Source: Planctomycetales bacterium
GTDB taxonomy: Bacteria > 4484-113 > JAFGCY01
Length of the DNA: 32,000 nucleotides
Assembly: GCA_022646745.1 (NCBI GenBank)
Contig: CP060262.1
Span: 2,700,001-2,732,000 of the forward strand
Direction of reading: 5' to 3'
Shown here: positions 2,279 to 27,800 of the stretch, one piece after another
How positions within the stretch are numbered: the first letter of the stretch is position 1
Layout: the number at the start of each line of letters is the position of its first letter
Translations under genes and position numbers: made by a program
Notes under the pieces: model-generated
Told to the model about the DNA's origin: nothing
What the model saw: the letters and a program-made list of their open reading frames with translations, nothing else
Database searches by the model: none

Positions 2279-3517
2279 ATGCAGCGTCAGACGGTCCTGC
2301 TCAACAATGAAGCGCTTTCCCGCATCATCGCCGAGCGCGAGGTCAAGCAGTGGCTGCTGGCCCGCCGGATGGGGATAGACCGCAAGACCATCAGCCGCTG
2401 GCTTTCTGGACGGACACAGCGCATAAGCAAGGAAAACCTGACCAAGCTATGTGACATCCTGGAGATAGGCGAATCCGCGATCTGCGTGATGGACAGGTTG
2501 GAAGCGCTGGGGACACGTGAAGACCGCTGGGAAGCAGCAAGAAAGCTCAGTGATGAGGACCTGGTAGAGATCGTCGGTCCAAGCAATAACTGGGAGCTTG
2601 CGGAAAGCCTGGTCAAATCCACTATCGATCCTGACATGCCTGCCGGCCTGCTGTCCAAGCTTTACCACATGCTCGCGCGTGTTTATCACTACATGCGCCG
2701 GGCGGAGGATTTCAAGCGCTGCTCCGAGATTGCCATCAGATACGCCCAGCAGGCATCGGACGAGTACATGGAACTGCAGGGCCGCCTCTGCCTGTCAACT
2801 TCGCTTCTGATGGTGGCAGACCTGAAGCAGGCTGCCGCCAACTACGAGCAGTGCCTGCTTACCCCTGAACTGTTCACCGCAAAGGCGCTGGCAGCCAGTC
2901 TCTCCAACCTCAGCAGTGCCTATCACCAGCTTGGGGAATTCAGAAAGTCTCTTGACTACTCCAGCCAGGCCCTGAAGGCGTGGTCCAAAGTGGGATCGAA
3001 CATGAGCCATGCGACCGCCTGGTACCTCCGTGCACAGATCCACATCGAACTGAGCATGGCTTCCGAGGCCCGATCCTCGATTGACGAGTGCATCCGCATT
3101 GCCGAAGAAGTGCGCTACCAGCGCATCGTCAACCTGATGCAGCTGATGCGGGCGGACCTGCTGAGTCTGGAAGGCAGGCATGATGACGCGGTTGATGCCG
3201 TCGAACGGGGACTTGCATTGTTGCCAGATACCCCGCGCGTCTCCTACATAACACTGGAGACAGCTGCGCGGCCGATGCGTCGTGCGGGATTGCTGGACCG
3301 CGCTGAAGAGTGCCTGAACATCGAAGTGGATGCAGAGCAGCAGTTCGGCTTTGAGTTGGCAAGCGGAACGATGGAGCGGGCGCGATTGCAACTTGCGCGC
3401 GGCGATGAGGAAGGTGCTATTGAACTTGCCGCCCGGGCGAACCAGTACTTCAGGGATATTGGCGCCGACCTGCGCTGCGTGGACGGTCTGCCCACCGAGC
3501 ATTACCGCCGGCTCTGA
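2279..3517 (+). CDS. Transcriptional regulator, XRE-type HTH + TPR-like domain (third tandem paralog)
   Basis: 412-aa ORF. The first ~115 aa are nearly identical in protein to gene 958-2208 (MQRQTVLLNNEALSRIIAEREVKQWLLARRMGIDRKTISRWLSGRTQRISKENLTKL...), while the C-terminal helical domain is strongly diverged. Confidence 0.75.
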   Translation: MQRQTVLLNNEALSRIIAEREVKQWLLARRMGIDRKTISRWLSGRTQRISKENLTKLCDILEIGESAICVMDRLEALGTREDRWEAARKLSDEDLVEIVGPSNNWELAESLVKSTIDPDMPAGLLSKLYHMLARVYHYMRRAEDFKRCSEIAIRYAQQASDEYMELQGRLCLSTSLLMVADLKQAAANYEQCLLTPELFTAKALAASLSNLSSAYHQLGEFRKSLDYSSQALKAWSKVGSNMSHATAWYLRAQIHIELSMASEARSSIDECIRIAEEVRYQRIVNLMQLMRADLLSLEGRHDDAVDAVERGLALLPDTPRVSYITLETAARPMRRAGLLDRAEECLNIEVDAEQQFGFELASGTMERARLQLARGDEEGAIELAARANQYFRDIGADLRCVDGLPTEHYRRL

Positions 3518-7753: not shown

Positions 7754-9321
7754 GATCTTCCTGGCTCCAGCAGTGATGGATCCCCGCTGACCCGCTTGAT
7801 CAGGTCACACAGGATCGGGATACCCTGTTGTATCTCCTCAACCGGACAACGAGAGAATGACAGCCGCAGGGCATTGCTGTCCTTCTTGCCCGGTGTGCAG
7901 TAGCTGGCTGGCAGGAAATCAACTCCCGCTTCGTGCGCCAGCTTCAGCAGCGGTACGCTCATTATATTTTGCGGCAGGTTGAGCCAGATGCTGAAGCCGC
8001 CATCCGGCTTTAAGTAGCTGCAGCCCTCCGGCAGGTTGGCATCCAGGCTGGCAATCATCGCATGCCAACGCTTCCTGTATTCACGTGTGGTCTTGCGGAT
8101 GTGCTTGTTGTAGTAGCCCTTGCTGATGAACTCATGCAGCAGGGCCTGCAGGAAGTAGCTGTCAGCGTTGTCACTGCCGAGCTTGGCGCAGACCAGTGGC
8201 ACGCTCAGCCCAGCCGGGCAGGTGATCCAGCCGATGCGCAGGCCTGGCAGCAGGCTCTTGCTGTAGGTGCCGATGTGGATCACGTAGCCACCGGGGTCCA
8301 TTGCCTTCAGCAGGGGTGGGGATTCACCGCCGTAACGCAGCTGCCTGCCCCAGTCATCCTCGATTATCGGGACGCGGTGCCGGGCCGCCAGCTTGATCAG
8401 GTGCTCCCTGCGCTCAAGTGACATGGTGACCCCGGTTGGGTTGTGGAAGGTCGGGATCGTGATCACTGCCTTGACCTCGCCACGGTTCAGCACCGTTGCC
8501 AGGTAGTCCGTGTCCATTCCGTTCTCGTCGACCGGGATCGGTTCAATCTCTATCCGTTCAGCCAGCAGGAAGTTGAGGATTCCCGTATAGCAGGGAGATT
8601 CGACAGCAACCTTCTGGCCGGGGTTCAAAAGCAGGCGCAGGATCAGGCTCATGCCACGCTGGAAACCGCCGGTCAGGATGATGTCATTCTCATTCTCAGC
8701 CATCGGCACGCCGGCCAGCGCCATTTCCTTCTCGAGGTGCTCAACCAGCGGCAGGAAGCCCTGTGGGTGCCCGAGGTCGAAGAAATGCTCCTTCGGACTC
8801 CAGAGCATGTTGCTTGTGACCTGCTTGATGCGGTTGAAGGGGAACAGGGCGGGGTCAGGGTTCCCGATGGAGAAGCGGATCATGGATTCACGCTTAGGTG
8901 GCGGCGGCACAAGGAAGAAGTCGGTGCGGAATTGATATGGCTCCCAGCGCATTTCCGGCAGTTGATCAAGTTCCCCGAACATCTCCGCCCGGGTTCCGAG
9001 GTTTGTGCCAGTGGCCCGGCGCGGCATGCCGGTCACGAAGGTCCCGCTGCCGTGCCTGGACTCGATGAAGTTGATCGCCTCCAGTTCCTCGTATGCGGTT
9101 TGCACAGTGGCCAGGGAGACCCCGAGCTGGCGTGACAGCGAGCGGACGCTGGGCAGCTTGCTGCCCGCTTCCAGTAATCCGTCTTCCACCAGCCTCACGA
9201 TCTGCTCGTGAATCTGCTGATAGACAGGTGTACTGCTGTCTTTATCAATTTTCAGTTGCACTGTATTGATGAATCTTACACCCGGGTTAAGTTTTGCCAT
9301 ACAGTGTCCAGGGCTGTACAT
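7750..9321 (-). CDS. MocR/GabR/PdxR-type transcriptional regulator (GntR winged-HTH fused to a PLP-dependent aminotransferase fold)
   Basis: 523 aa. N-terminus PVYQQIHEQIVRLVEDGLLEAGSKLPSVRSLSRQLGVSLATVQTAYEELEAINFIESRHGSGTFV is a GntR HTH. The C-terminal ~400 aa are fold-type-I aminotransferase-like with a probable PLP-lysine in YSKSLLPGLRIGW. The start could alternatively be ATG 9300. Confidence 0.8.
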   Translation of the reverse strand: MYSPGHCMAKLNPGVRFINTVQLKIDKDSSTPVYQQIHEQIVRLVEDGLLEAGSKLPSVRSLSRQLGVSLATVQTAYEELEAINFIESRHGSGTFVTGMPRRATGTNLGTRAEMFGELDQLPEMRWEPYQFRTDFFLVPPPPKRESMIRFSIGNPDPALFPFNRIKQVTSNMLWSPKEHFFDLGHPQGFLPLVEHLEKEMALAGVPMAENENDIILTGGFQRGMSLILRLLLNPGQKVAVESPCYTGILNFLLAERIEIEPIPVDENGMDTDYLATVLNRGEVKAVITIPTFHNPTGVTMSLERREHLIKLAARHRVPIIEDDWGRQLRYGGESPPLLKAMDPGGYVIHIGTYSKSLLPGLRIGWITCPAGLSVPLVCAKLGSDNADSYFLQALLHEFISKGYYNKHIRKTTREYRKRWHAMIASLDANLPEGCSYLKPDGGFSIWLNLPQNIMSVPLLKLAHEAGVDFLPASYCTPGKKDSNALRLSFSRCPVEEIQQGIPILCDLIKRVSGDPSLLEPGRS

Positions 9322-9418
9322 TCACTTCCGGGTGCCCCTCAGCTCAGTTCAGATCTTAACAGGCTTTGGACCCAAAGCCAATCCCTGTAGTAGGGATATG
9401 CAGGTGTATGGCGAAAAT

Positions 9419-9506
9419 TGTATAGAAGTGTATCGGTATGCATGGCATACAGTCTGTACACTTCTCACATCAGTGATTTGCTCTGCGGGAATTCCGATGT
9501 ATACAT
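9419..9506. promoter_or_regulatory. Candidate operator cluster in the divergent MocR / lipoprotein intergenic region (nested inverted repeats rich in TGTA/TACA)
   Basis: AGAAGTGTA (9424-9432) pairs with TACACTTCT (9457-9465). Inner TATGC-ATG-GCATA sits around 9437-9449. Perfect 10-bp palindrome ATGTATACAT at 9497-9506. Confidence 0.3.
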
Positions 9507-9529
9507 ATGTAATCGGGAAGGAGAAGTTG

Positions 9530-12500
9530 ATGAGCATGACGAACACGCGATGGTATTTGATCACTGCAGTACTGGTACTGCTGTTCACCAGCGCCTGCGG
9601 GGGAGGCGGTTCACAGGATTTCCTGTCCGCCGACAACGACAGGGGATTCAGCCTGGCAACTGACCAGACTGCCGACGGCGGATCCGCACATTTCTCTATC
9701 AATGTGCTTGAGCAGGCGGACAGCACGGAAGTGCAGGTCAGCGCTGGCAATGCCCGCGACCTCACCCAGCTGCTGCTGCACCTCAACTATGATGCCAGCC
9801 GCTACACACCCTCCAGCCAGTCAGCCTCTGGGCTGCTTGGCGAGGATGACGAGCTGCTCACGCTTGCTGTTGACAGCGAGCCTGGTGTACTGCACTACGG
9901 TGTGGTCAGCACCACCGGAGCAGGCTTCAACGGCAGCGGCCTTCTGGCCAGCCTGAAGTTCGACAACCAGCCGCTGGATCCCGCCCGCACGCTGAGTTCA
10001 CCGCCTGCCCTGGGAAATGCGGCAGCCGAAATTGAATACAACAACCTGAGCGGCCAGATCAGCTGGTTCTATGCCAACCCCGGTGACACCAACCAGGATG
10101 GCCTGGTAAACCTCGCTGACCTGGTGCCGATCGCCCGCGACTACATGGCCGCTGGGCCCTTTGGCATCTCCTCTCGCCAGAGCGTGGCGGATGCCAACGC
10201 GGACGGAGAGGTCAACATCAGTGACGTCAGCGTACTGGGTGCAAACTGGAATAATGATGCTTTCGGCGGATTCAATGTCTACTCCTCCGACATCGAAGGC
10301 GCCCAGGGCAGCCCGGTCGGCAACGTAGCTTTCGCAAACGCCGTCGGTGACCCCGCTGCAGAGCGCCTGCGCTTCAGCTACATGCTCCCCAGCGGCAGCC
10401 GCAATGCCTACGCCTGGGTGCAGCCGGTTGACGGCGCTGGCATGGCCGGCCTGAGTGGAGACTCCATCTTCTCCGATATCGTGATCAGCGGACCGACCGC
10501 CAGCTTCGGCAACAAGACCGAGGGTGGCGACGGTACCTCCGGCAACCCCTTCGTTGTCAACAGTGGCGAGGTTATGCCCTTCGTGGTCTATGACCCCGAG
10601 GATGGCGACATCACCGGGAGCGCAGGCCTATCCATGTGGCTTGAGCCGACTGTCGCAGGAACCCTGTCCGGCGGCATGCTGAACGTTTCCGACAGCTACA
10701 ACGGCAACTTCGTGATGCGCGGCAGCTACCAGGGCGAGGACGTCCAGCTGCTGGCGACGACCAAGACCTCCAGCGGCCTCGGCACGGGTAATGGCGATGG
10801 TGCCTTCTTCCAGATTGATGGCTGCCTTGAGCTGCGACTGGATGCCCCCGAGCTGGATGGCAACGGTTCCATCTGGAACCCCTATATCGTGGATACGGCC
10901 GGTGCCAGCCTGGATTTCAGTGTCTGGCATTGCGACTTCGGCGACATCAGCGACAGTGAGAACCTGAGCTGGGGCTGGCAGCCGGAGAACGCTGGCGAAT
11001 TCAACTGGGACATCAAGGGCTTCACATTCTTCGAGCAGTTCACCGGGCTGTGGGTGATCGAGGTTGCCTGGGAGCATGAAGGCGCAGTCGCCTCGGACCA
11101 CCTCTACTTCATCGTGGACCCGAGCGGCGGCGGCAGCGAGGCAGAGCTCGCGCTCAAGGTGCTGGATGGCTTCGAGGACGGTGCAGGCACCGCCGAGAAC
11201 CCCTACATCATCTGCGACACCACTCATGAATTCGGCCTGAAGGCCTGGCACAGCGAGCTTGGCGACGTCACCCAGAACGAGCACCTGATCTGGCATGTCA
11301 ACCCGGAAACGGCCGGCATAGTCCATCCGGAGTGGCACCAGTTCAACGTGGCGGAGGGCTTCCTCGGCAACTTCTACATCGAGATCGTGTGGGAGACCGA
11401 GAACCAGCGCTTGGTTGCCAAGAAGTACTTCAAGGTGCAGCAATGCGAGACCGGCGGCAAGGTCTTTGAGATCAAGGTCGGCGAGGGCATCTCCGGCGGC
11501 ACCGGCACACAGGAGGACCCCTACCAGGTCTGCATCGACGAGGTGTGGGAGTTCTACCTGAAGGCCTGGCACGAGGAATATGGCGACGTGACGGAGCATG
11601 GTGACACCACCTGGAGCTGGAGCCCGGAGAATGCCGGAGCGGTCCATCCCGAGTGGCACCAGTTCAACATGGCGGAGGGATTCACCGGCCCGTTCAGCAT
11701 CCACGCCGTGCACCACCGCCAGGGCCAGGCCTGGGAAGACACCAAGTACTTCAAGGCGCTGGAGTGCGGTGGTACCGAGAATTATGTCGAGATCAAGGTC
11801 ACCAGTGGCTACGTGGATGGCAACGGTGGACCTGACAACCCGTACATCATCTGCAACGACACCTGGGAACTGGGCGTGAAGGGCTGGCACAGCGTGCTGG
11901 AGGACATCACCCAGAACGAGCACACCACCTGGATCGTGGATTCACCGAATGCCGGCATCATGCACCCCGAATGGCACCAGTTCAACCTGTCACAGGGCTG
12001 GCTTGGTCCCTTCCACATCAAGCTGGTGTGGGAAGCCGAGGGTGTCGTGCTGACCGACACCAAGTACTTCAACGTGATCGAGTGCAACACTGAGGAACCC
12101 TACCTCAGCCTGGTGACGGACCTCGAGGGGCTCGGCGGCGAGGGGACGCAGGAGCTGCCCTACAAGTTCTGCCAGGGCAGCGTCGGCGAGATCTTCTTCC
12201 AGGTTTTCCACAGTGAGCTTGGCGAGATCACCTTTGACGAGCACCTCCACTGGTTCACTGAGCCCGCCGCTGCCGGCGAGTTCCGTCCGGACTTCTCAGA
12301 CTTCGTCGTTGATGCAGGCTATCTCGGTGTCTTCAACGTGACCTGCAAGTACATCACGGAGCAGCAGACCCTCATCAAGACCCTGTGGTTCAAGCAGGTT
12401 GACTGCGAGCTGCCCAGTGAGCTGGTGCTGATCGTCACCAATCCGCCGGAGCAGGGTGAGGGTACCGAGGCCAACCCCTATGTTTATCCGCAGAACCCGA

Positions 12501-12727
12501 TCGAGATCGGCCTGAAGTTCCTGCACCCCGAACTGGGTGACATCACTGACAACGAGAACGTCGTCTGGGGCTGGAACCCGGAGAATGCCGGTGAGTTCCG
12601 TCCGCAGTGGAATGACTTCCGCGTCAACAACGAATTCACCGGAGGATTCTGGATCTCCGCTGGCTGGCCGACCGAAGGTGGGCTGGAGGTCCGCAAGGTC
12701 TGGATCGTGATCGGCAACGTGATCTGA
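9530..12727 (+). CDS. Lipoprotein with dockerin-type repeat pair followed by seven tandem ~106-aa beta-rich repeats (unassigned, Ig-like?)
   Basis: The ORF-track ORF opens at 9266, but ATG 9530 follows a strong SD (GGAAGGAGAAG) and gives MSMTNTRWYLITAVLVLLFTSA/CGGGGS, a signal peptide with lipobox-like Cys. Dockerin pair NPGDTNQDGLVNLADLVPIARDY ... DANADGEVNISDVSVLGANW lies at about 10078-10250. The repeats are listed as a separate feature. Confidence 0.75.
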   Translation: MSMTNTRWYLITAVLVLLFTSACGGGGSQDFLSADNDRGFSLATDQTADGGSAHFSINVLEQADSTEVQVSAGNARDLTQLLLHLNYDASRYTPSSQSASGLLGEDDELLTLAVDSEPGVLHYGVVSTTGAGFNGSGLLASLKFDNQPLDPARTLSSPPALGNAAAEIEYNNLSGQISWFYANPGDTNQDGLVNLADLVPIARDYMAAGPFGISSRQSVADANADGEVNISDVSVLGANWNNDAFGGFNVYSSDIEGAQGSPVGNVAFANAVGDPAAERLRFSYMLPSGSRNAYAWVQPVDGAGMAGLSGDSIFSDIVISGPTASFGNKTEGGDGTSGNPFVVNSGEVMPFVVYDPEDGDITGSAGLSMWLEPTVAGTLSGGMLNVSDSYNGNFVMRGSYQGEDVQLLATTKTSSGLGTGNGDGAFFQIDGCLELRLDAPELDGNGSIWNPYIVDTAGASLDFSVWHCDFGDISDSENLSWGWQPENAGEFNWDIKGFTFFEQFTGLWVIEVAWEHEGAVASDHLYFIVDPSGGGSEAELALKVLDGFEDGAGTAENPYIICDTTHEFGLKAWHSELGDVTQNEHLIWHVNPETAGIVHPEWHQFNVAEGFLGNFYIEIVWETENQRLVAKKYFKVQQCETGGKVFEIKVGEGISGGTGTQEDPYQVCIDEVWEFYLKAWHEEYGDVTEHGDTTWSWSPENAGAVHPEWHQFNMAEGFTGPFSIHAVHHRQGQAWEDTKYFKALECGGTENYVEIKVTSGYVDGNGGPDNPYIICNDTWELGVKGWHSVLEDITQNEHTTWIVDSPNAGIMHPEWHQFNLSQGWLGPFHIKLVWEAEGVVLTDTKYFNVIECNTEEPYLSLVTDLEGLGGEGTQELPYKFCQGSVGEIFFQVFHSELGEITFDEHLHWFTEPAAAGEFRPDFSDFVVDAGYLGVFNVTCKYITEQQTLIKTLWFKQVDCELPSELVLIVTNPPEQGEGTEANPYVYPQNPIEIGLKFLHPELGDITDNENVVWGWNPENAGEFRPQWNDFRVNNEFTGGFWISAGWPTEGGLEVRKVWIVIGNVI
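10526..12724 (+). repeat. Seven in-frame tandem coding repeats (period 318-333 nt) inside lipoprotein gene 9530-12727
   Basis: Repeat starts (G-x-G-[TS]-x-x-NP[YF]) at 10526, 10859, 11180, 11498, 11819, 12137 and 12455. Conserved columns are NPY, [KV]-[AG]-WH-x-E-L-G-D-[IV]-T, W-x-W-x-PENAG, HPEWHQFN, F-x-G-x-F-x-I and KYFK-x-x-x-C. Confidence 0.85.
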
Positions 12728-12750: not shown

Positions 12751-12779
12751 AGGGCGTCCCTACGGGGGCGCCCTTTTTT
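12751..12779. terminator. Bidirectional intrinsic terminator between convergent genes
   Basis: Hairpin GGGCG-t-CCC-tac-GGG-gg-CGCCC followed by TTTTTT on the + strand, 24 nt after the stop at 12727. The T-run abuts and overlaps the stop codon of the minus-strand ankyrin gene (12778-12780). Confidence 0.6.
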
Positions 12780-14673
12780 ATCTCGCGGTCTCGAGCCAGC
12801 CTGCAAGAATCTCATTTCCGGCAAGCCGCGCCAGTCGTGCGGGGGTGTAGCCCCTGCCATCAACCGCATCCGGCTGCGCACCGGTTTCGATCAGCTTGCT
12901 GGCCAGCGGAACGGAACCACGCAGGGCCAGGTGGTGCAATGATCCCCACTGCATGCTGTCAACCGCGTTGACATCCGCACCGGCCTCGATCAGCTGCCTG
13001 GCGCAGGATTCCCCGTAGTAGTTGCTTGCCGCCAGTGCGTGCATCAGTGCAGTGCGTCCCTGGCTGTCACGCTTGTCAAGCGATGCTCCCTTCTCGATCA
13101 GCTGGCTGATGATCACAGCGATCCCGGTATCCGCCGCCAACATCAGGGCACTGTTCCCCTGCGCATCAGTGGTGTCCGGATCTGCGCCGGCCCTCAGCAG
13201 CAGTGCTGCCACTTCGTTGTCACCGCGGCTGCAGGCCCGCAGCAGTGGAGTGCCGAACCAGGGGTCGAATGCATCAGCCGCTGCCCCGGCATCCAGCAGG
13301 TCCTTCACGAGTTCCGTCGGTGACAGCGCTCCACATGACAATGCGGTTGCTCCTCCGACCCCCCTTGCGTTGACGTCCGCACCGCGGCTGAGCAGCAGTT
13401 CAACCGTGCTTGCCTGGCCGGCCATGGAGGCGTAGTGCAGTGCAGTCCAGCCGCAGCCGTCCGTGCCGTTGACATCCTCACCGGCATCCAATGCAAGCTC
13501 AATGATTGAATCACTGCCCTGCGCTGCCGTGAAGTGGAAGGGATGCAGGTCAAATCCACCCTCGCCACCGGCCTCGCTCAGTAGCTTTGCCAGCTCCGCA
13601 TGTCCGCCATCCACGGCCCGGTCCAGGGCGGTGCGTGCCATGTAGTCACAGGCGTTCACATCTGCACCGCGTTCCAGCAGCAGCTGGGCCACCTGCACGA
13701 GGTTGCGATCAGCGGCACTGATCAGCGGTGTCTCGCCGTAGGCCCCGCGAAGCTCGATGTCAGCGCCATGGTCCAGCATCAGGTTTGCCATGGCTGTTGA
13801 TTCAACCGTATGCAGCCTGCCGTAGCCCCAGCTGTTCAGCCGGTCCGGGTCGGCGCCATACTCCAGCAGGGTGGCGCACACCTCATAGGTACCGCCAAGC
13901 AAGGGTGTCTGCCCGCTGAAGTCCTCGACCGGATCCACCTCAGCTCCGGCGTCCAGCAATAGCGCGGTGCATTCCTGGGAGTCCACGCAGAGGTGCAGCG
14001 GGGTCACCGAATTCATCAGGGTTGGCAGCGAAGGATCAAGTCCATTCTGCAGCAGCAGGCTGACCAGCGGTGCGTTGCCACTGGCGGCTGCGAGGTGCAG
14101 GCAGCTGATCCCGGCATCCCAGCCGGAGGATGCAAGCATCATCTCCATGCCGCTTCGCAGCTCCGCCGGGTTGTCCGCCAGCACGCCGTCACTCAGCCAT
14201 TGCCAGTCTCCCCTGTACAGGCGACGCACATCGGCCCCGCCGTCCAGCAGGCGCTGGACCATCTGGAGGTCCCCGAACTGGCAGGCGGCATGCAACGGCG
14301 AGAACCCACCCCAGCCACTGGCATTCACGTCCGCGCCCTGCTGCAGCAGGGAATTGACGACTGCGAGATTGCCAACTGCGATTGCATAGTGCAGGGGTGT
14401 CAGGCCAGCAGTGTCACCGGCATTCACCATGCCTGGTGTGTAGGCTCCGGCGATTGACATATCCCCCTTGATCACGGCAAGGTGCAGTGCATTCCAGCCG
14501 GTTCCGCTCCAGCCCTGCATCTCGGTGGCCTGGGAGACGATCCCGAAGGGCCGGATGTTGATCGTGGCCGGTCCGTCTGCCACTTCCCCGTCGGCCTGCC
14601 AGGCAGATGCAGCCTGCATGGACAGGAGCAGCAAGGCAAACGAACTGGCGATCAGGTGTCTGAAGCGAGGCAT
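12778..14673 (-). CDS. Secreted ankyrin-repeat protein (~17 ANK repeats)
   Basis: ATG 14673 gives MPRFRHLIASSFALLLLSMQAASA/WQ (signal peptide). The TTG at 14736 would overlap the upstream gene. Repeats of the form G-x-TPLH-x-A-x-x-x-G-x-x-x-x-V-x-x-LL-x-x-GAD-[VP]-N recur about 17 times. Confidence 0.85.
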   Translation of the reverse strand: MPRFRHLIASSFALLLLSMQAASAWQADGEVADGPATINIRPFGIVSQATEMQGWSGTGWNALHLAVIKGDMSIAGAYTPGMVNAGDTAGLTPLHYAIAVGNLAVVNSLLQQGADVNASGWGGFSPLHAACQFGDLQMVQRLLDGGADVRRLYRGDWQWLSDGVLADNPAELRSGMEMMLASSGWDAGISCLHLAAASGNAPLVSLLLQNGLDPSLPTLMNSVTPLHLCVDSQECTALLLDAGAEVDPVEDFSGQTPLLGGTYEVCATLLEYGADPDRLNSWGYGRLHTVESTAMANLMLDHGADIELRGAYGETPLISAADRNLVQVAQLLLERGADVNACDYMARTALDRAVDGGHAELAKLLSEAGGEGGFDLHPFHFTAAQGSDSIIELALDAGEDVNGTDGCGWTALHYASMAGQASTVELLLSRGADVNARGVGGATALSCGALSPTELVKDLLDAGAAADAFDPWFGTPLLRACSRGDNEVAALLLRAGADPDTTDAQGNSALMLAADTGIAVIISQLIEKGASLDKRDSQGRTALMHALAASNYYGESCARQLIEAGADVNAVDSMQWGSLHHLALRGSVPLASKLIETGAQPDAVDGRGYTPARLARLAGNEILAGWLETAR

Positions 14674-14698
14674 GGCAAGAGAATACAGTGCGCAGGGC

Positions 14699-15616
14699 TC
14701 AGTTTTCGACAGTTGCGGCTTCTTCCGCTTCAACAATCTCCTCTATTCCGGCCAGCTGGTTGCTCCATTGCAGGAACTCTCGGGCGATTTCCGTCCAGTC
14801 CGGGTCCGTCTCATCAAAGTTTCCATGGTTGCCACCCGGCACACGCAGCAGCCGGTTGTCCACCCCAAGTCCAGAGAGCAGCTCCTGCATGGCAACGCTC
14901 TGGGAATACGGCACGATGTCGTCTGCATCACCGTGCACCATGAATACCGGCACGTCGCGTTTGTCCGCGTAGTTGAGAGGGCTGGCATCACGTGCCTGTG
15001 ACGGATCCTCCAGCGGATCTCCACCAAGCAGGTTGACCAGCATGTAGCGGATCTGGTGGAAGTGCCATTCCTCGGCCAGCAGGTCAGTGGGGCCGTACAG
15101 CGAGAATGTCCCGATGATGCTGTAGTTGCGCCAGCTGTGCTGGTCGAGCCCTGCCATCAGGGACAGGTGCCCCCCGGCACTGCCGCCGGCCACGACGATC
15201 CTTTCCGGATCAGCACCGATTTCATCAGCGTGCCTGCCGATCCATTCGAGGCAGGCGTGCACATCTTCTATCTGTGCCGGCCACTTTGCCTGGCCGGACA
15301 GCCGGTAGTTAGTGCTGATCCCGACCCAGCCTGCCTGAACGGGGCCGCGCAGGAAGATCTCACCTTCCGCCTTGTCCCCGCCCTGCCAGCCGCCTCCGTG
15401 GATATACAGGCACACCGGACGAGGACCCTCGGATTCCCCTGCAGGTAGGTAGATATCCATTGCGACATCCACTCCATCCGCAGAACTGAAGACCACATTG
15501 CGCCTGACTTCAGCTGTGCCCTGTTCAGTCTCCTGGCACGCTGCCGGCCTGGCAGTCAGGACCAGCGCAAGCCCAGATATCATTGCGAAAAGCGATTTGC
15601 GTGTTATGCTCCACAT
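14699..15616 (-). CDS. Secreted alpha/beta-hydrolase (esterase/lipase-like)
   Basis: ATG 15616 gives MWSITRKSLFAMISGLALVLTARPAA (signal peptide). Oxyanion motif LYIHGGGW, nucleophile elbow GGSAGG, and downstream VHGDADDIV and GGNHG as candidate Asp/His. Confidence 0.75.
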   Translation of the reverse strand: MWSITRKSLFAMISGLALVLTARPAACQETEQGTAEVRRNVVFSSADGVDVAMDIYLPAGESEGPRPVCLYIHGGGWQGGDKAEGEIFLRGPVQAGWVGISTNYRLSGQAKWPAQIEDVHACLEWIGRHADEIGADPERIVVAGGSAGGHLSLMAGLDQHSWRNYSIIGTFSLYGPTDLLAEEWHFHQIRYMLVNLLGGDPLEDPSQARDASPLNYADKRDVPVFMVHGDADDIVPYSQSVAMQELLSGLGVDNRLLRVPGGNHGNFDETDPDWTEIAREFLQWSNQLAGIEEIVEAEEAATVEN

Positions 15617-15839
15617 AGCTGGACAAAAGCTTACCGTCAGCACCCCTGGACTGACATGAAAATGGACCTCTTTGAAACTCCATCTCATTGACGGTTGACT
15701 GGTGAGTGTCTATGCTGGATTAGTCCCATCGCTATAAATTCCCTGAATTGATGTTTACTATTGAAAATTCAAGGGGATAACGAGTGGTTTGCTAAATTTC
15801 GGTGAGCCGCAATTTATTGGGATACAGAGGAGAAGGTCA
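15617..15839. promoter_or_regulatory. AT-rich divergent intergenic region; probable promoters for the esterase gene (-) and the giant gene (+), plus the giant-gene SD
   Basis: Markedly AT-richer than its flanks. TTGACT at 15695-15700 and TATAAA at 15733-15738 are -35/-10-like but not well spaced. SD GAGGAGAAGG at 15827-15836 precedes ATG 15840. Confidence 0.3.
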
Positions 15840-18800
15840 ATGGCTGGGTTTTCTGCCTTTTTCCGAACATCCAGGGAATTCCTTGGACACGCACGCATTG
15901 CATCGCTCATGGCAGTGATGCTTTTCGCTTTTCTGGGGCAAAGCGCAATTGCCGCTGGATACCTCAAATATGAAGGTATCGACGGCGAGTCGCAGGGCGC
16001 ACAGGCTCCGGGTTCCGGTTTCACCCTGGTCTTCGGTACCGAAGATCTCGGTGAAGTCCAGGAGTTGAGCTTCGAGCCGGACATCCTGGAGGTGCGCAGC
16101 TTCGAACAGGGGCGGGACAACCTCCGGGTGGAAGTGGTGCTTTCGCCAGATGCCGCAGCAGGGGACACGGAACTTACATGCATGTGTACCCATCTGCTGG
16201 CTGACGGAGGTGAAGATGAAACCACCACGACCTTTGTGCTCTCCATCCGCGGCAATCCGGAGCTGACCGGGCTGCGTGACTCAAGCATCAGGGTGGATTC
16301 GCCGGATGAGCCGCTGCGCATCGTGATAGACGGCAAGGGCCTTGCGGAATTCGTCAACGAGGCAAACATCATGGCAAGGGTCACCGGAAACGGAATTGAC
16401 AATGATTGTGATGTTGTCGACGAGGACTGCGATGACGACAGCCTCAGCTTCTCCGTGAATCCCCCATCCAATGGCTGGACAGGTGCGACAGCCCTGCAGA
16501 TTGCCGTCAACCATCCCAATATCGTACAGTTCATCGGGACAGTGAAGCTTGATTCCAGTCAGCTGGGCAAGCCTGGTGAATACGAATTTGAACTGACGGA
16601 TGTTGAAGGCAGCCTGAAGGTTCTGCCCAATGGAAAGCCAGCCCCCGACCAGGGGGAAATTGTGCTTATCGGCGAGCTGCGCGGCATGTTTGCCGGTGGA
16701 GCGGCCTCCGGTCTGGCACAGGTGCGAGTTGTGGATGCCTTCGGGAACAATGTCCCTGTTGCCAGCGGCGACCTGGATATCGCCGACCAGGAGTCGGCTA
16801 CCGTCAGGGTTGTAGTGCGTGGCTGGGACCCGACCGAGAAGAAGAATGTAAAGAGTGCTGATGAGCTTGGTGATGAGATCGAGCTCAGCCTGCAATGCGA
16901 GTATGACGGAAAGCGCCTCAGTTCATCCATTGACTGCCCGCTCGAGCTAGTAGAATCCAAGAAGAAGCAGCTCAAGGCAGTTGTCAACCCGCTCAAGGAC
17001 GGTGTCAATGGCGAAGTTGGCGAGGACGGATTTGAGTGGGACAATGACACGGTCGAGTTTGATGTGTTGATCGGCCGGGAGTTCGCCGTTGAAGGTGCCG
17101 AGGTTTCAGTTGAGGCGATGGTTTCTCCGGAGCTGAAGGATTCAATGTTCAGCGGCATGGAGCTTGACGTGGAAGCCGGTGATGTCGAGCTGGACAAGCG
17201 TCAGCTCCTGTCCCCGATCCGTTGTACCTTCCCGCCGGTGGATGCCGGCGACGGCCGCAACTCCGGCTTCCGCACAATTCCGATAATTGTTGTGGTTGGC
17301 ATCGGTGACGCCGAGGCCCGTATCCCGCTGGAGGTCCCCTTCACACTCGGCAAGGTGGAGCTTGCCCCGGTCCTGACCCGGGTGGTTCCTGTCAACGATC
17401 CCCCGAGCGTGGCGATCGCACCCGGTTCTCCTGATATTGAGGACCTGCTGTCCGCCTGCTCTTTCAGCATTGAAGTGAGTGGTGAGAACCTTGACGAGAA
17501 GTTGGCGGGTGACCTTGAAGTCACTGTTGACGGCGAGGTCTGCGGAGTCAACGAGAGCTCATACGAAATCCTTGAGAACGGCGCCGGCAAGTTCAAGGTT
17601 GATATTGAAGGCTGCCCTGTCTCTTCGTCAAATGTCGAGTCGATTATTAATGACTCCTCCAACTGGGGTTCCGAGCAGGTGCTGCCGTTCACGGTTGAAG
17701 TGAGCCTTGGTGACAGTACCGTCAGCTGCCGGCATGACCTGAAGATTTCAGTCGGCGAACCTGAGGCAATCCTGATCGGCCTGCTGCTGCCGGCCGTGCA
17801 GAAGGTCCGTGCTGCCGATACGACGGAGTTCGGGCTGACCATCCAGTTCAGCGGTGAGAACCTCACTGAGCAGTTCATGGGTGGCATCACTGTTGAGGAC
17901 CTCGTCATCGACGAACGCGAAATGACCACCGGTGCTGACTGGGATTACCGCCTCAGCTCCGGTGCCGACGGCTTCACTGGCCATGTGACCGTGCTGAAGA
18001 TCGCGGCAGGCGGTGGTGGCGACACCACGGACTGGTGGCTTGAGACCTGCGGCGGCGAGCGCAAGTCCGAGTTCAGGGTTAGCTGCGTGCTGGTTGATGC
18101 GAACGGTGACAGCCAGGACCTCCAGTGCACGGTGCCGATTGAATGGCCGGAGGAAGTGGTACCGGCCATCATCAGCCTGGCAGTGTCTAGTTCACAGCCA
18201 GTGCAGATCAGCGAGGACGGCATTCTGTCCATTGACTTCGAAATGGAAGTTGAGGGATTCAGCGATGAACTCTACAACTCAATTGAATGGTATCCGGATT
18301 GTGATGACGACGACTATCGTCTGGGTGATTTCGAAGTTAGTTACCGGACCTACCAGCCCGGCCAGCCACAGTACGGCAACATTACCTTTGAGCGTAACGA
18401 CAGTGGCAACGGCGGTGATAACGGAGAATTGAAGATCAAGCTCCGTTGCAAGATGATTGCTGCTGATGGTGGTTCATCGGAGGCTGAAGCCGAGTGCGCA
18501 GTTCTGCTCCCCGCGATTCCACCAGTCATCAGCGGCATCGAATTCAGCAGTGCGACTCCGCTTTCCGCAGACTGGACAACCGAACTGACCCTGAAGCTCT
18601 CCGGTGAGAACCTCGATGTACTGCGCCGCAGTGGCGACCAGTGGCTGGACAATGGTGGTGCAGTCTACATGTCCTCCGGGATGTGCTCGGGCGTGCTGCA
18701 GGGCTTTGAAGAGCCAATGGACGGCAGCTGTGAAGTGACTGACCTGCGCATCTCTGACGATGGCAGCAGCGCTGAAATGACAATGACGTGCCGGGCCAGT

Positions 18801-24800: not shown

Positions 24801-27800
24801 ACGGGCAACCTCTATGAGGAAGTGACAGTCAAGCCGATCCGGCTCGAACTGGCGATCAACGCCCCCGGTGGTGGCGGTTCTGCTGACCCGCCGCCGACCG
24901 AGGACTTCTCCCTCAACTTCGAAGAGATCAAGGTCACCTACGGCGAAACTGACTCCATGCGCATGGATGGCAACGGCGGAGCAATCTACGTTTCCTGCTG
25001 GGCCAGCTTCAGTGGTGAGGGGAACGAATATCCCTATGGCCGGATCATCTATGGATCCGGTGCATCCATCCAGGCAAGGCTTGATGATGGTACGGATGTG
25101 CCCGCGACCATAGAAGACATCAGGGACAATGGTGGGTCTTCCCAGATCCTGATTGGCCTGCTGCTTCCCGCGGTGCAGAAGGTGCGTGACGCAGCTGCCC
25201 GCAGTGAATCTCTGCAGGTTGAGATCCGCTGGATGGCTCCTGAGTCAATGGGCCGCAGCAGCTCAAGCTGGGATCCGCTGGTGCTTGACCTCTCCGGTGA
25301 TGGCACCCGCAAGCAGGGTGACCCGGATGCCAACCGATACGACTTCGGCAATGACGGTGCCATCCAACCTGGAAGTGGCATCAGCCAGACCAGCCTTGAG
25401 AACATCGAAGTCCATTATGTGGTTCCGGGTGAAGATCACAGCGCCGGCGACGAACATGAGGTCGAGTTTGACATTTCAATGGGTGCCGTTCACGACCAGA
25501 ACTCCGGCATGAGCTTTGAGGACTTCGTTGCCCAGTTCGAAGATGGACGCTTCGTCCTGCGATCTGGTGTGCCTGCGGTACGCAGTGCGGATGGTGGATC
25601 AGATATCGAATCATCGGACTACGAGATCCTTACCGACAGGGAGAAGAACACTGTCTATCTGAACATCAAGATGACAAAGGTGATGGTCACAAGCTACCAG
25701 AGCAGCGGCAGTTCAGCGGGTGATTCCTCCAGTGTTGAGTTCCGGGGATCCCTGAGATATGTGTTCCCGTCCTTATCTGCAGCCGGCACCGGTAATCTAG
25801 CAGGAGAGATTGATATCAAGCCGATCCGGCTGGAGCCGAAGGCTGTAGCAAGTAGCGGTGGAGTTGGCGACAGCAGTGACGACAGTTCAATGGACAGCCT
25901 GAGCACCATGGATGCGATGGTTTCCGGCGGTGGCGACGGAAGTGGCGGTGGCGGCGGTGAACCCGTCGGGATGATCGAGGAGCGCAAGAAGTGCTTCACG
26001 AACCATTTCGACTGTGACCTGCGCCAGTCTTCGCCGTCCTTCACCAGCGGCGCGATTGAGGTTGAGCTCACGCTGGCTGACATGAACGGCGATGGCCTGT
26101 TTGATGAAGCCGACGCCCTGTTGCTTGCCGATATGCTCAGCCGCAACGTGCAGTGGGCTGCTTCCGGTGCCGACGGTTCAGTCGTTGACAATCCGGAGGA
26201 CTGGGGCATTTCCAACCCTGAGTGCGTGGTGTCCGATGTCAAGGTCAGCCCGCCGCAGATGGCCCAGCTGACACTGGTCCTGAACTGGACAGTCAACACG
26301 GAAGCAATGAAGCAGCAGCTCGCTGCCCGCAGGGGTGCGAACGAGAGTTCCGCGATCAGCACCCTTCGGACCGTGGTCTCCGCGAACACGATGTACTTGC
26401 AGGACGGCAGCAATGGTCCATACTATGGAATTGAATTGGCGATGGAGCCGCTGTGGCATGACGCTGACCTGAGCCGGGAGCTTATGGGCGATGGCGAAGG
26501 TGGCACACGCGCCCAGGATTACAATTCCTCCCGTTCAAATACCGACGGTATTGCCGGGCCGGGTGGTGACATTAATGACCAGGATGGCGACATTGAGATC
26601 AAGCTGCTGGACGCCCGTCTGGAGAACTGGCGTGACAATGATGATGACGATGATGGGGTATGCGACCTGGTCGTCGACTTCGAGATTGACAACAGTACGG
26701 GTGTACCGCTGGACGGTGCCTTCCGCTTCAGCAGCAGCCTGACGCTTCCGGATGGCAGCTCGGTACCCGGCGTGATTGAGTACCAGGACGGAAATGACCT
26801 GATCCTGCGCAAGCGCCCGGGCCGCACCAAGTACTCCAACATCACGCTCAAGCGTGGTTTCATAGATGATGGCACCCTGATTTCAGTGGTGGACTTCCAG
26901 CTTGACTACGATGGCAATGACGAACAGACCCGCGGCTGGATCACAGAAGTTGTCCAGGGAAAGGGCTGGAAGCGTACGCTGACGATCAAGGAAATCACGA
27001 AGGACGGTGGTGCAGGCAAGTTCTCCTCGATTGACAACGCATCTGAGGAGAAGGAGCGTGGCATCACCATCAACACGAGCCATGTGGAGTACCGTTCAGT
27101 ATCACCGAAGCTCGTGGACGGTGCACCTCCTGTGCTGGTCTTCAGTGATCTAGTGATTGACGTGGAAGAGAACTGGAAGTCCCCCAGCACCAATGGTGAA
27201 GGAGAAGTGGCTTACCAACTGGTGTTTGCCGACGGTTCAACTAGTCCTGGCAAGGTTGAATACCAGGACGGGGATGATCCCATCCTGCGGAAGAGACCCG
27301 GCCGGATCAAGTTCGGAACGGCTTCCGGTGGAGGTGCTATTGCTTCAGGTGCCACCGGTGGTCGCAGCAGTGGCAGCGAAAGTGCGATCATCGCCGTGCT
27401 GATCGGCCTGCTGCAGGATGGCAGCCAGGTCAGCACTGAGCTTGAGATCCCGATTGATGCTGAGACGGCACGCTGGTGGGTCAATAACAAGATGAAGGAC
27501 AGCGCTCGGGACAGCAGCGTATCCGGTGGAAACAGCGGTGATGGATCTGACCAGGGCTGGGGCGGTGGTCCGAGGATGGTTATATGGCCGCCTGTGGACC
27601 CAACCAGGACTCCCGCTCCCGCGGGCCCGGTCCCGATTCCCTATCCGAGTATTGCGGGTGGAAATGGTGGCGGTGAGGGAGTTTCCTTCACGATAGAGAT
27701 CACGGGTGCAGGTGAGGGCACGGATGTCGATAGTGCATGGGAGACCTGCTCTGGAGGATCCCTGAGCATTGAGATATCCGATAGCAGCACCGGTTCCGAC

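Follow-up and report, generated by a model that had tools for sequence, protein, structure and literature searches.

Why should a very large exported protein carry, deep inside its sequence and several times over, a piece of the N-terminal helix of a pilin-like protein? The question is raised by a stretch of 32,000 nucleotides from a Planctomycetales bacterium (assembly GCA_022646745.1, contig CP060262.1, positions 2,700,001 to 2,732,000 of the forward strand; hereafter the window), in which one open reading frame encodes a protein of 5,079 residues that I refer to as the giant. It contains six copies, and part of a seventh, of a word of 17-18 residues that belongs to the N-terminal helix of the prepilin-type DUF1559 proteins. 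The reading that I favour, with a probability of roughly 0.4, is that the giant displays a mimic of the stalk of that helix.

The open reading frame that carries all copies of the word runs from 15840 to 31079 on the plus strand, as do all the features placed within it below. The listing of open reading frames opens it at a TTG (15789-31079); the ATG at 15840, which has a GGAG-type ribosome-binding site upstream, was preferred and is likely the true start. The giant is predicted to be exported via Sec. By eye, its first residues form a putative Sec-type signal peptide, MAGFSAFFRTSREFLGHARIASLMAVMLFAFLGQSAIA↓AGY (15840..15953), and this N-terminal segment (…LMAVMLFAFLGQSAIA↓AGY) is the only place in the giant where the 19-residue Kyte-Doolittle mean reaches about 2. 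An exhaustive phmmer search identified the giant with the database protein P0034 and revealed an orthologue, P0035, of 5,355 residues and 48% overall identity, in which the signal peptide is conserved. A profile-guided search of GTDB representative genomes returned no orthologue, and homologue searches with pieces of 1,200 and 500 residues returned only proteins sharing a single word (2-13% coverage) from a collection in which the giant itself is apparently not indexed.

Copies 1 to 6 of the pilin word lie at 17769..17816 (16 residues, truncated after R28), 20247..20303 (the lysine-free QAAREAARR subtype), 21069..21125, 22308..22364, 23220..23276 and 25146..25202, the last five being 19 residues long. 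They span residues 661-3138 of the giant, none being N-terminal, and their in-frame consensus is [IV]GLLLPAVQ[KA][VA]R[ED]AA[RA]R. The partial seventh word (27384..27413) consists of 10 residues that correspond to mature pilin residues 11-20 and stops before Pro22; it is identical to the canonical DUF1559 stretch, and P0035 retains part of it as ISAVLIG. All seven had been located by the initial annotation, and the seven intervals do translate, in the frame of this one open reading frame, into the peptides that it quoted. A degenerate DNA pattern for LLLPAVQ[KA]xR has exactly six sites on the two strands of the window and gave 0 matches in 100 dinucleotide-preserving shuffles, so that the chance expectation is zero. 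Copy 4 is followed by S[KR]EDVYVWKLRC and copy 5 by SKEDVYVWKLRC; the former motif, which stands directly after both copies (22371-22406 and 23283-23318), recurs as SKEDVYVWKISR in the Bacteroidota protein P0013.

The kinship of the word with DUF1559 proteins is close. Residues 2440-2620 of the giant, used as a query in an exhaustive phmmer search, retrieved P0034 (the giant itself), the orthologue and about 90 ordinary DUF1559 proteins of 300-380 residues. The 18-mer is an exact match to the N-termini of a canonical DUF1559 subtype, one that is abundant among Planctomycetota proteins generally in the database sample, and copy 2 matches the other common canonical subtype (QAAREAARR). In profile-profile comparison (hhalign) the word aligns to columns 25-45 of the DUF1559 alignment with a probability of 98.6% (E 1e-15). 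DUF1559 ranks with the largest paralogous families of the Planctomycetota, and the profile of its canonical proteins aligns, from mature residue F1 onwards, to pilins and pseudopilins of solved structure (geopilin, PpdD, PilA, PilE and GspG). The word therefore corresponds to mature residues 16/17-33, and its proline to pilin Pro22. This bears out the initial annotation, which had taken the peptide for the distal portion of the N-terminal helix of DUF1559 proteins, internal, repeated and devoid of a prepilin cleavage site. Indeed, a six-frame scan of the window found no G/A↓FTLIE site, and inspection of the flanks found none preceding any of the six copies. The 19-residue hydropathy maximum at the copies is 0.7-1.4, as against 3.25 for a canonical DUF1559 N-terminus. 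Lacking both the cleavage site and the hydropathy, the copies cannot serve as prepilin N-termini or membrane anchors. Pilus assembly depends on pilin residues 1 to about 20 (F1, E5 and the hydrophobic core). The anatomy does not favour the further suggestion that the copies mimic a pilin assembly interface: the pilus core is built from hydrophobic residues 1-16, whereas it is residues 17-33 that were copied, and a mimic of the stalk immediately past the membrane segment is the better fit.

What has kept the word intact? Aligned in register, the six copies have a mean pairwise identity of 0.80 within the 18-residue word, which falls to 0.16 over the 30 flanking residues to either side. Where two copies share an amino acid with four- or six-fold degeneracy, their codons differ in 39.5% of pairs, as against about 60-70% for a random draw from the codon usage of the open reading frame; most four-fold sites vary in codon from copy to copy, and single positions of the word use three different codons for Pro and four for Ala. 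When the giant is aligned with P0035, the words figure among the near-invariant islands. Moreover, when the words were masked and only the flanks aligned, every copy had a counterpart in the orthologue (6/6), at residue 631 for copy 1, 2235 for copies 2 and 3, 2537 for copies 4 and 5, and 3481 for copy 6. Synonymous codon differences together with orthologous counterparts indicate that these are old copies kept as peptide, rather than recently copied DNA or a nucleic-acid motif, and the pattern points to purifying selection on the word at the peptide level. A mobile-element or RNA-level origin was considered and set aside, since it is the peptide that is conserved, synonymous sites varying from copy to copy.

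The giant is not the only protein built in this way. The initial annotation had called the internal placement very unusual. No description of internal pilin words or of proteins like the giant was found in a literature search whose incomplete coverage makes this an absence of evidence. The placement is not unique, however: the proteins fetched comprise 107 exported non-pilin proteins with 326 internal copies of the word, and 55 of the 150 best phmmer cluster representatives carry two to nine internal words and no prepilin site. These counts describe a sample retrieved by similarity to the word and are not a census. The carriers begin with Sec, Tat or 'Planctomycete extracellular' N-termini, and those with a named source come from Planctomycetota metagenome-assembled genomes, except for one fragment labelled Firmicutes. 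Across the 326 copies, positions -3 to +13 carry high information content, which drops abruptly beyond them; canonical DUF1559 proteins, by contrast, remain conserved to either side. Such sharp boundaries indicate that the word behaves as a discrete, portable unit. Furthermore, the internal copies elsewhere reproduce the canonical IG, IA and AA variants; because they do so, and because copy 2 of the giant likewise reproduces a canonical subtype, mimicry appears a better description than mere reuse.

One group of carriers provides a structural view of the word. The P0037/P0190-type family, which has no name in Pfam, consists of tandem repeats of about 53 residues (DLGxGxD…) that contain one word each and follow a 'Planctomycete extracellular' N-terminus. 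An AlphaFold2 model of P0190, computed from an alignment of 28 family members, is a calcium-type beta-solenoid with four strands per coil (predicted local distance difference test, pLDDT, 85; predicted template-modelling score 0.80). In every repeat of the model an xVLIGLL strand is followed by a 10-residue excursion and then by an AARMxVD strand, so that the hydrophobic half of the word is predicted to be a strand and PAVQKVREA an exposed loop; the 10-residue blocks bearing the excursion average a pLDDT of 60-73. The closest solved fold is the calcium-dependent beta-helix of MpAFP (3p4g; template-modelling score 0.45-0.57). The initial annotation had proposed, as an alternative, a helical insertion in Hcp-like modules. 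The word does occupy a fixed slot of repeated modules, but the confident model of this related family suggests a buried beta-strand and an exposed loop rather than a long helix. The giant itself stands outside the 53-residue family: its copies sit in modules of different types, separated by 270 residues or more, and its N-terminus is a Sec signal peptide. On the tests run, the word feature lies outside the prepilin, DUF1559 and P0037-type families.

The reading that I find most likely starts from a discrete word of 17-18 residues that has been built into the scaffold modules of the Sec-exported giant and is kept there by selection on the peptide itself. It does not act as a pilin N-terminus, being neither cleaved nor membrane-spanning nor polymerising. 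Its hydrophobic half (IGLLL) would be packed in the scaffold and its polar half exposed to solvent, so that the giant would offer the stalk of the DUF1559 helix in several copies. A partner that binds or modifies this stalk in the many DUF1559 proteins of the cell would then bind the giant as well, and this would either dock the giant to that system or titrate the partner; the candidates are components of pseudopilus assembly, a modifying enzyme, or some outside agent directed at the pilins. Within this scheme, I infer the exposure of the polar half in the giant, the shared binding partner and the docking or decoy effect.

Several considerations weigh against the displayed stalk. The exposure of the word in the giant is extrapolated from another scaffold: the AlphaFold2 model of the giant's own unit, from the word to the H-X9-DG motif described below (four paralogous rows), reached a pLDDT of 45 and, being unreliable, was not used; it gave a strand and then a helix. 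I know of no binding partner of the word, nor of any function for DUF1559. Neither in the window nor in the repeat-family neighbourhoods examined was the word found linked to pilus or type II secretion genes, and just one of the repeat-family loci examined has a DUF1559 gene, about 6 kb away. The giant also bears words of EF-Tu and of tyrosine kinases, cytoplasmic proteins, which a rationale centred on the pilus leaves unexplained. Finally, pilin words stand in front of H-X9-DG-type words in the native order of DUF1559 proteins, which may mean that they are remnants of whole domains and not free-standing mimics.

The latter possibility is the main rival. Copies 2-5 are held in repeated modules of about 275 residues (19986..23813), each of which opens with an Hcp-loop word, S/APRDAASGxxxGKRQHKP..KPIDKxTPLL (19986, 20802, 21612, 22872/22938 and 23778). 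These four of the six pilin words precede an H-X9-DG-type word by about 95-105 residues, and the same holds in P0035, an association that the initial annotation had missed. The true H-X9-DG word, GSQHSGGVNVLMGDGSVHFI (23544..23603), is the C-terminal signature of DUF1559 and follows copy 5 by about 105 residues. MCVMGDGSV variants follow copy 2 by about 90 residues (MCVMGDGSVMPV, 20523..20558) and copy 4 by about 100 (MCVMGDGSVVPA, 22626..22661, conserved in P0035), and the word after copy 3 is degenerate. The motif, HSGGVNVLMGDGSVHF, which like the pilin word is internal in the giant and occurs once in its true form besides the variants, scores 34.1 bits against TIGR04294, for which the cutoff is 19; the region covers only positions 237-263 of the 268 of PF07596 (hhalign E 4.8e-5). 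Accordingly, the modules might descend from repeated fusions of whole DUF1559 domains that lacked the membrane helix and then decayed or shrank, leaving just the ends of the family under the strongest constraint, the distal helix and the H-X9-DG hairpin, in which case the segment from the word to GDGSV would be a miniature pilin-like head. The native order of the two words (copies 2, 4 and 5, less clearly copy 3, and P0035), the TIGR04294 score, a single CPSD motif in the giant and the fact that canonical DUF1559 proteins match the query at both of its ends all argue for such an origin. However, hhalign yields two separate local matches to the ends of DUF1559 and nothing between them (the third hit has a probability of 0.4%), and the central motifs CxNNLKQ, PYxEQ and DGxSNT are absent from the giant. 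The spacing between the two words is about 100 residues, as against about 250 in DUF1559 proteins, and copies 1 and 6 have no C-terminal word. In addition, other proteins carry DUF1559 motifs in scrambled order (P0059 and P0074), or the word alone in 53-residue solenoid repeats. Domain remnants are therefore an unlikely explanation, albeit the strongest of the competing ones.

A second explanation is that the word is purely structural, a strand-turn-(helix) element borrowed once and spread by module duplication, which no partner would recognise. Its fixed slot in the repeated modules, and the role of its hydrophobic half as a core strand in the solenoid family, are what one would expect in that case. 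On the other hand, conservation is equally strong in the buried half and in the polar half, the latter being modelled as an exposed loop of lower confidence. Furthermore, in the third paralogous module an unrelated YVVSKLLTQEQVAAIASLMEDDGE replaces the word (21888..21959) between flanks that align well. A slot that tolerates unrelated sequence makes it unlikely that strict conservation of the word elsewhere is a folding requirement, and suggests that the word serves something beyond packing. Its near-identity to the pilin consensus, subtypes included, across unrelated scaffolds likewise exceeds what packing needs, and I regard purely structural reuse as rather improbable.

A third explanation rests on the neighbours of the 53-residue repeat genes. 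In six of the eight neighbourhoods examined (L004 10001-12924, L005 2255-5370, L007 6001-8844, L020 4001-7160, L021 497-3384 and L022 2408-5692 being repeat-family loci), the repeat gene adjoins a gene for a methyltransferase of about 500 residues (PF10119 plus PF21782, WHD_PKMT) of the protein lysine methyltransferase (PKMT) type; the other neighbours vary, and in one locus the two genes are divergent. The sample is small and partly phylogenetically dependent, L005 and L020 sharing synteny. Outer-membrane enzymes of the PKMT type are known to methylate numerous lysines in OmpB of Rickettsia and AtaA of Acinetobacter, both giant surface adhesins (PMC8232902, PMC11784438). By analogy, the word might be an acceptor whose lysine, in VQKVRE, is methylated by the neighbouring enzyme; besides the adjacency, the lysine is 95% conserved over the 326 copies and lies in the modelled exposed loop, and the PKMT substrates described so far are surface adhesins of large size (PMC11784438, PMC8232902). 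Yet copy 2 of the giant has no lysine, and no PKMT-type methyltransferase (PF10119 plus PF21782) is present within the 32-kb window. Besides, known PKMTs act on lysines throughout very different adhesins, over 130 being methylated in AtaA (PMC11784438), and such activity would not in itself call for a word of 17 residues. Methylation as the sole reason for the word is thus a somewhat poorer candidate again; it is compatible with the displayed stalk, the enzyme then being the partner.

Fourth, the copies could reflect a non-adaptive process at the DNA level, either ectopic recombination or gene conversion with the 5' ends of DUF1559 genes, or a store of silent cassettes for varying the pilin, like Neisseria pilS. 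So large a paralogous family supplies many donors, and conserved ends do flank variable middles. Nevertheless, the codon differences described above, the sharp boundaries of the word, which are the same in unrelated proteins and beyond which none of the adjoining pilin sequence is carried along, and an uninterrupted 15-kb open reading frame that has a signal peptide and an orthologue of 48% identity, which indicates a protein that is translated and selected, together make this account very improbable; the uninterrupted frame, the signal peptide and the diverged orthologue led in particular to rejection of the pilS-type store. That the segments are genuine internal transmembrane or pilin-type segments processed by prepilin peptidase, an idea with nothing but sequence resemblance in its favour, can be dismissed, refuted as it is by the missing G/A↓FTLIE site and the low hydropathy. 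A phage origin of the word was also rejected, its DNA pattern occurring in just two IMG/VR contigs and PHROGs being uninformative.

The pilin word is not the only foreign signature in the giant. Pfam and NCBIfam models match it with short pieces only, of 20-60 positions per model. T6SS_HCP (PF05638, TIGR03344) does so seven times, over positions ~16-78 of 129 or 52-93 of 167, and words resembling the N- and C-termini of Hcp sit elsewhere in the giant than these seven partial matches. Phage_T4_gp19 matches over positions 24-77 of 134, and gp19 words lie at 26778-26834, 27258-27314 and 29406-29462. A word of the VgrG/gp5 OB-fold, PEVDDEVTVAFQEGDPDQPIVIGRLY (30741..30818), corresponds to positions 46-75 of the 75 of PF04717 (Phage_base_V) and also matches fragments of VgrG NCBIfam models. 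The EF-Tu word, IDNASEEKERGITINTSHVEY (27030..27092; positions 40-72 of about 396 of NCBIfam EF-Tu, E ~1e-7), is kept in P0035. The catalytic loop of tyrosine kinases is represented by IVHRDIAARNILL (30414..30452; HRDIAARNILL; positions 120-136 of the 258 of PF07714, PK_Tyr), a conserved island, and a sequence like that of their subdomain VIII, EIRWMAPES (25221-25247), begins six residues after copy 6. The island DHSAGDEHEVEFDI (25434-25487) is the C-terminus of true Hcp proteins of type VI secretion systems; a metagenome scan returned only genes for such true Hcp proteins, which share this C-terminal word. Nearly all of the islands conserved between the giant and P0035 are in fact signature words of unrelated families. 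As read from these matches, the giant is a collage of short fragments of Hcp, the gp19 tail tube, VgrG, H-X9-DG proteins, EF-Tu and tyrosine kinases. The initial annotation had not recognised the pilin word as belonging to such a set of family signatures.

The vocabulary varies between relatives. P0035 has an HU-type word, ARTGRNPQTGKEIKISAK, at about residues 1975-1995, and the giant is unrelated at the corresponding residues (about 1135-1160, ~19190-19270 in the window) although the flanks align; hence words may be present in one orthologue and absent from the other. An apparent placement of this HU word at the slot of copy 3 in a MAFFT alignment was discarded, local alignments of the flanks alone having identified it as an artefact of repeat register. 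P0045 and P0048 are also collages, with words of EF-Tu, Hcp, gp19, VgrG and the core of extracellular contractile injection systems (eCIS), and of HU in P0048; at one of their sites PEVDDEV runs directly into 10 residues of the pilin word. The Bacteroidota proteins P0006, P0013, P0236 and P0237 share much of the vocabulary and are without the pilin word. It is tempting to place the giant in a class of exported proteins that has not been described, 'signature-word collages', whose fast-evolving, beta-rich scaffolds would hold the most invariant peptides of other families as brief, sharply delimited units frozen by selection and act as polyvalent mimics, whether decoys or docking racks, towards partners able to recognise such peptides; this generalisation is a little less probable than the displayed stalk. 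If it held, the vocabulary may comprise the DUF1559 stalk, the N-terminus, loop and C-terminus of Hcp, gp19, VgrG, H-X9-DG, EF-Tu and kinase loops, with HU and the eCIS core in relatives, and the pilin word may be a lineage-specific item of a vocabulary common to Planctomycetota and Bacteroidota.

Other motifs of the giant recur in the same proteins. DYNSSRSN / DHNSSRSNKT repeats are found in the region of 26523-26546 (residue 3579) and from 28611, 28734, 28968 and 29805, and NPLYEG occurs twice at 30300-30353. The D-x-N-S-S-R-S-N-K-T and NPLYEG motifs are shared with outer-membrane-type proteins of Bacteroidota, and P0236 and P0237 carry many ATDHNSSRSNKTS repeats. The former motif fits, as a candidate site, D/E-x-N-x-S/T, the sequon of bacterial N-glycosylation; NPLYEG resembles the NPxY motif of integrin-beta tails. 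At the C-terminus of the giant, SRASHDAAMGSIRNMK (31029-31076), the pattern HDxxxxSIxNxx is invariant in the orthologue. The same C-terminal motif, as …TRHDTVKNSIGNIR, closes the Bacteroidota proteins P0006 and P0013 and is internal in P0045 and P0048. The motif may represent either a sorting signal or one more borrowed word; inspected by eye, it bears a faint likeness to the C-terminal helix of type III secretion needle proteins. The marine metagenome contig L013 carries a standard type VI cluster at 8051-12721 (TssC, Hcp, TssE-like and TssF-like), in which Hcp ends with ...EEDHSAGDEHEVEFDIAMGA, the kind of sequence that is the source of one conserved word of the giant.

The neighbours of the giant in the window encode an esterase, an ankyrin protein, a dockerin protein and ClpP, and no PADLOC defence system matches the window. 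The ankyrin protein (12778-14736, minus strand, two genes upstream of the giant) has 652 residues, almost all in ankyrin repeats (Pfam Ank E 4e-75), and is thus a eukaryote-like repeat protein close to a giant with tyrosine-kinase-like and NPxY-like motifs. The reading frame at 9266-12727 (plus strand, about 1,150 residues) starts like a lipoprotein and contains a dockerin-type calcium-binding segment and about six tandem repeats of some 115 residues (…NPY..C…W…PE.AG…PEWHQFN..EGF.G.F…), none of which has a Pfam match. Further upstream lie tandem paralogous regulators with HTH_26 and tetratricopeptide-repeat domains (MalT-like; 12-920, 958-2208 and 2279-3517, plus strand; L002 3205-7022), an array that comprises, over the window and its upstream extension, no fewer than three complete copies plus a partial one.

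The copying of residues 17-33 as a discrete and nearly invariant unit into more than 100 exported proteins suggests that this part of the helix is a recognition element in its own right. The peptide, the solenoid 'rack' proteins and the neighbouring methyltransferase are reagents with which a partner of the word could be fished for. If the conserved signature islands reflect function, they would represent a mode of protein evolution and mimicry that was not found described. For annotators, the lesson is that short but strong hidden Markov model matches to Hcp, EF-Tu, kinases or DUF1559 in collage proteins do not indicate the presence of those domains.

How does the giant compare with known systems? 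With the DUF1559 / H-X9-DG prepilin-type proteins of the Planctomycetota-Verrucomicrobiota (PF07596, TIGR04294) it shares an 18-mer identical to a subtype consensus and, in the native order, one true and two or three variant H-X9-DG words. It differs from them in that its word is internal and repeated, in the absence of the leader and cleavage site, of residues 1-16 and of the central motifs, and in being a Sec-exported carrier of 5,079 residues. The word maps to residues 17-33, with Pro22, of the alpha1 helix of type IV pilins and type II pseudopilins (PilA, PilE, GspG and PpdD); the part of that helix responsible for assembly, residues 1 to about 20, is exactly what the word of the giant misses. 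Modular pilins such as PilB of Streptococcus sanguinis have a complete, processed N-terminal pilin module and polymerise (PMC8179133). They resemble the giant in joining pilin sequence and non-pilin modules in one polypeptide, whereas the giant has only an internal fragment, many times. Calcium-dependent beta-solenoid or RTX-type adhesin domains (MpAFP region IV, 3p4g) are alike in presenting a regular array of residues along one face, a likeness obtained for the model of the 53-residue word-repeat family and not for the modules of the giant. To my knowledge, no RTX protein displays a pilin-derived loop. The PKMT substrates OmpB and AtaA parallel the word-repeat family as large, repetitive exported proteins paired with a PKMT-type methyltransferase; they are without a pilin-derived motif, and the giant gene has no methyltransferase near it. 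Lastly, the short linear motif mimics and repeated-epitope decoys of pathogens offer the combination of short copied peptides, multivalency and a fast-evolving carrier that is seen here, but the families mimicked by the giant are mostly its own or other bacterial ones (pilin, Hcp, tail tube, VgrG and EF-Tu) rather than the signalling motifs of a host.

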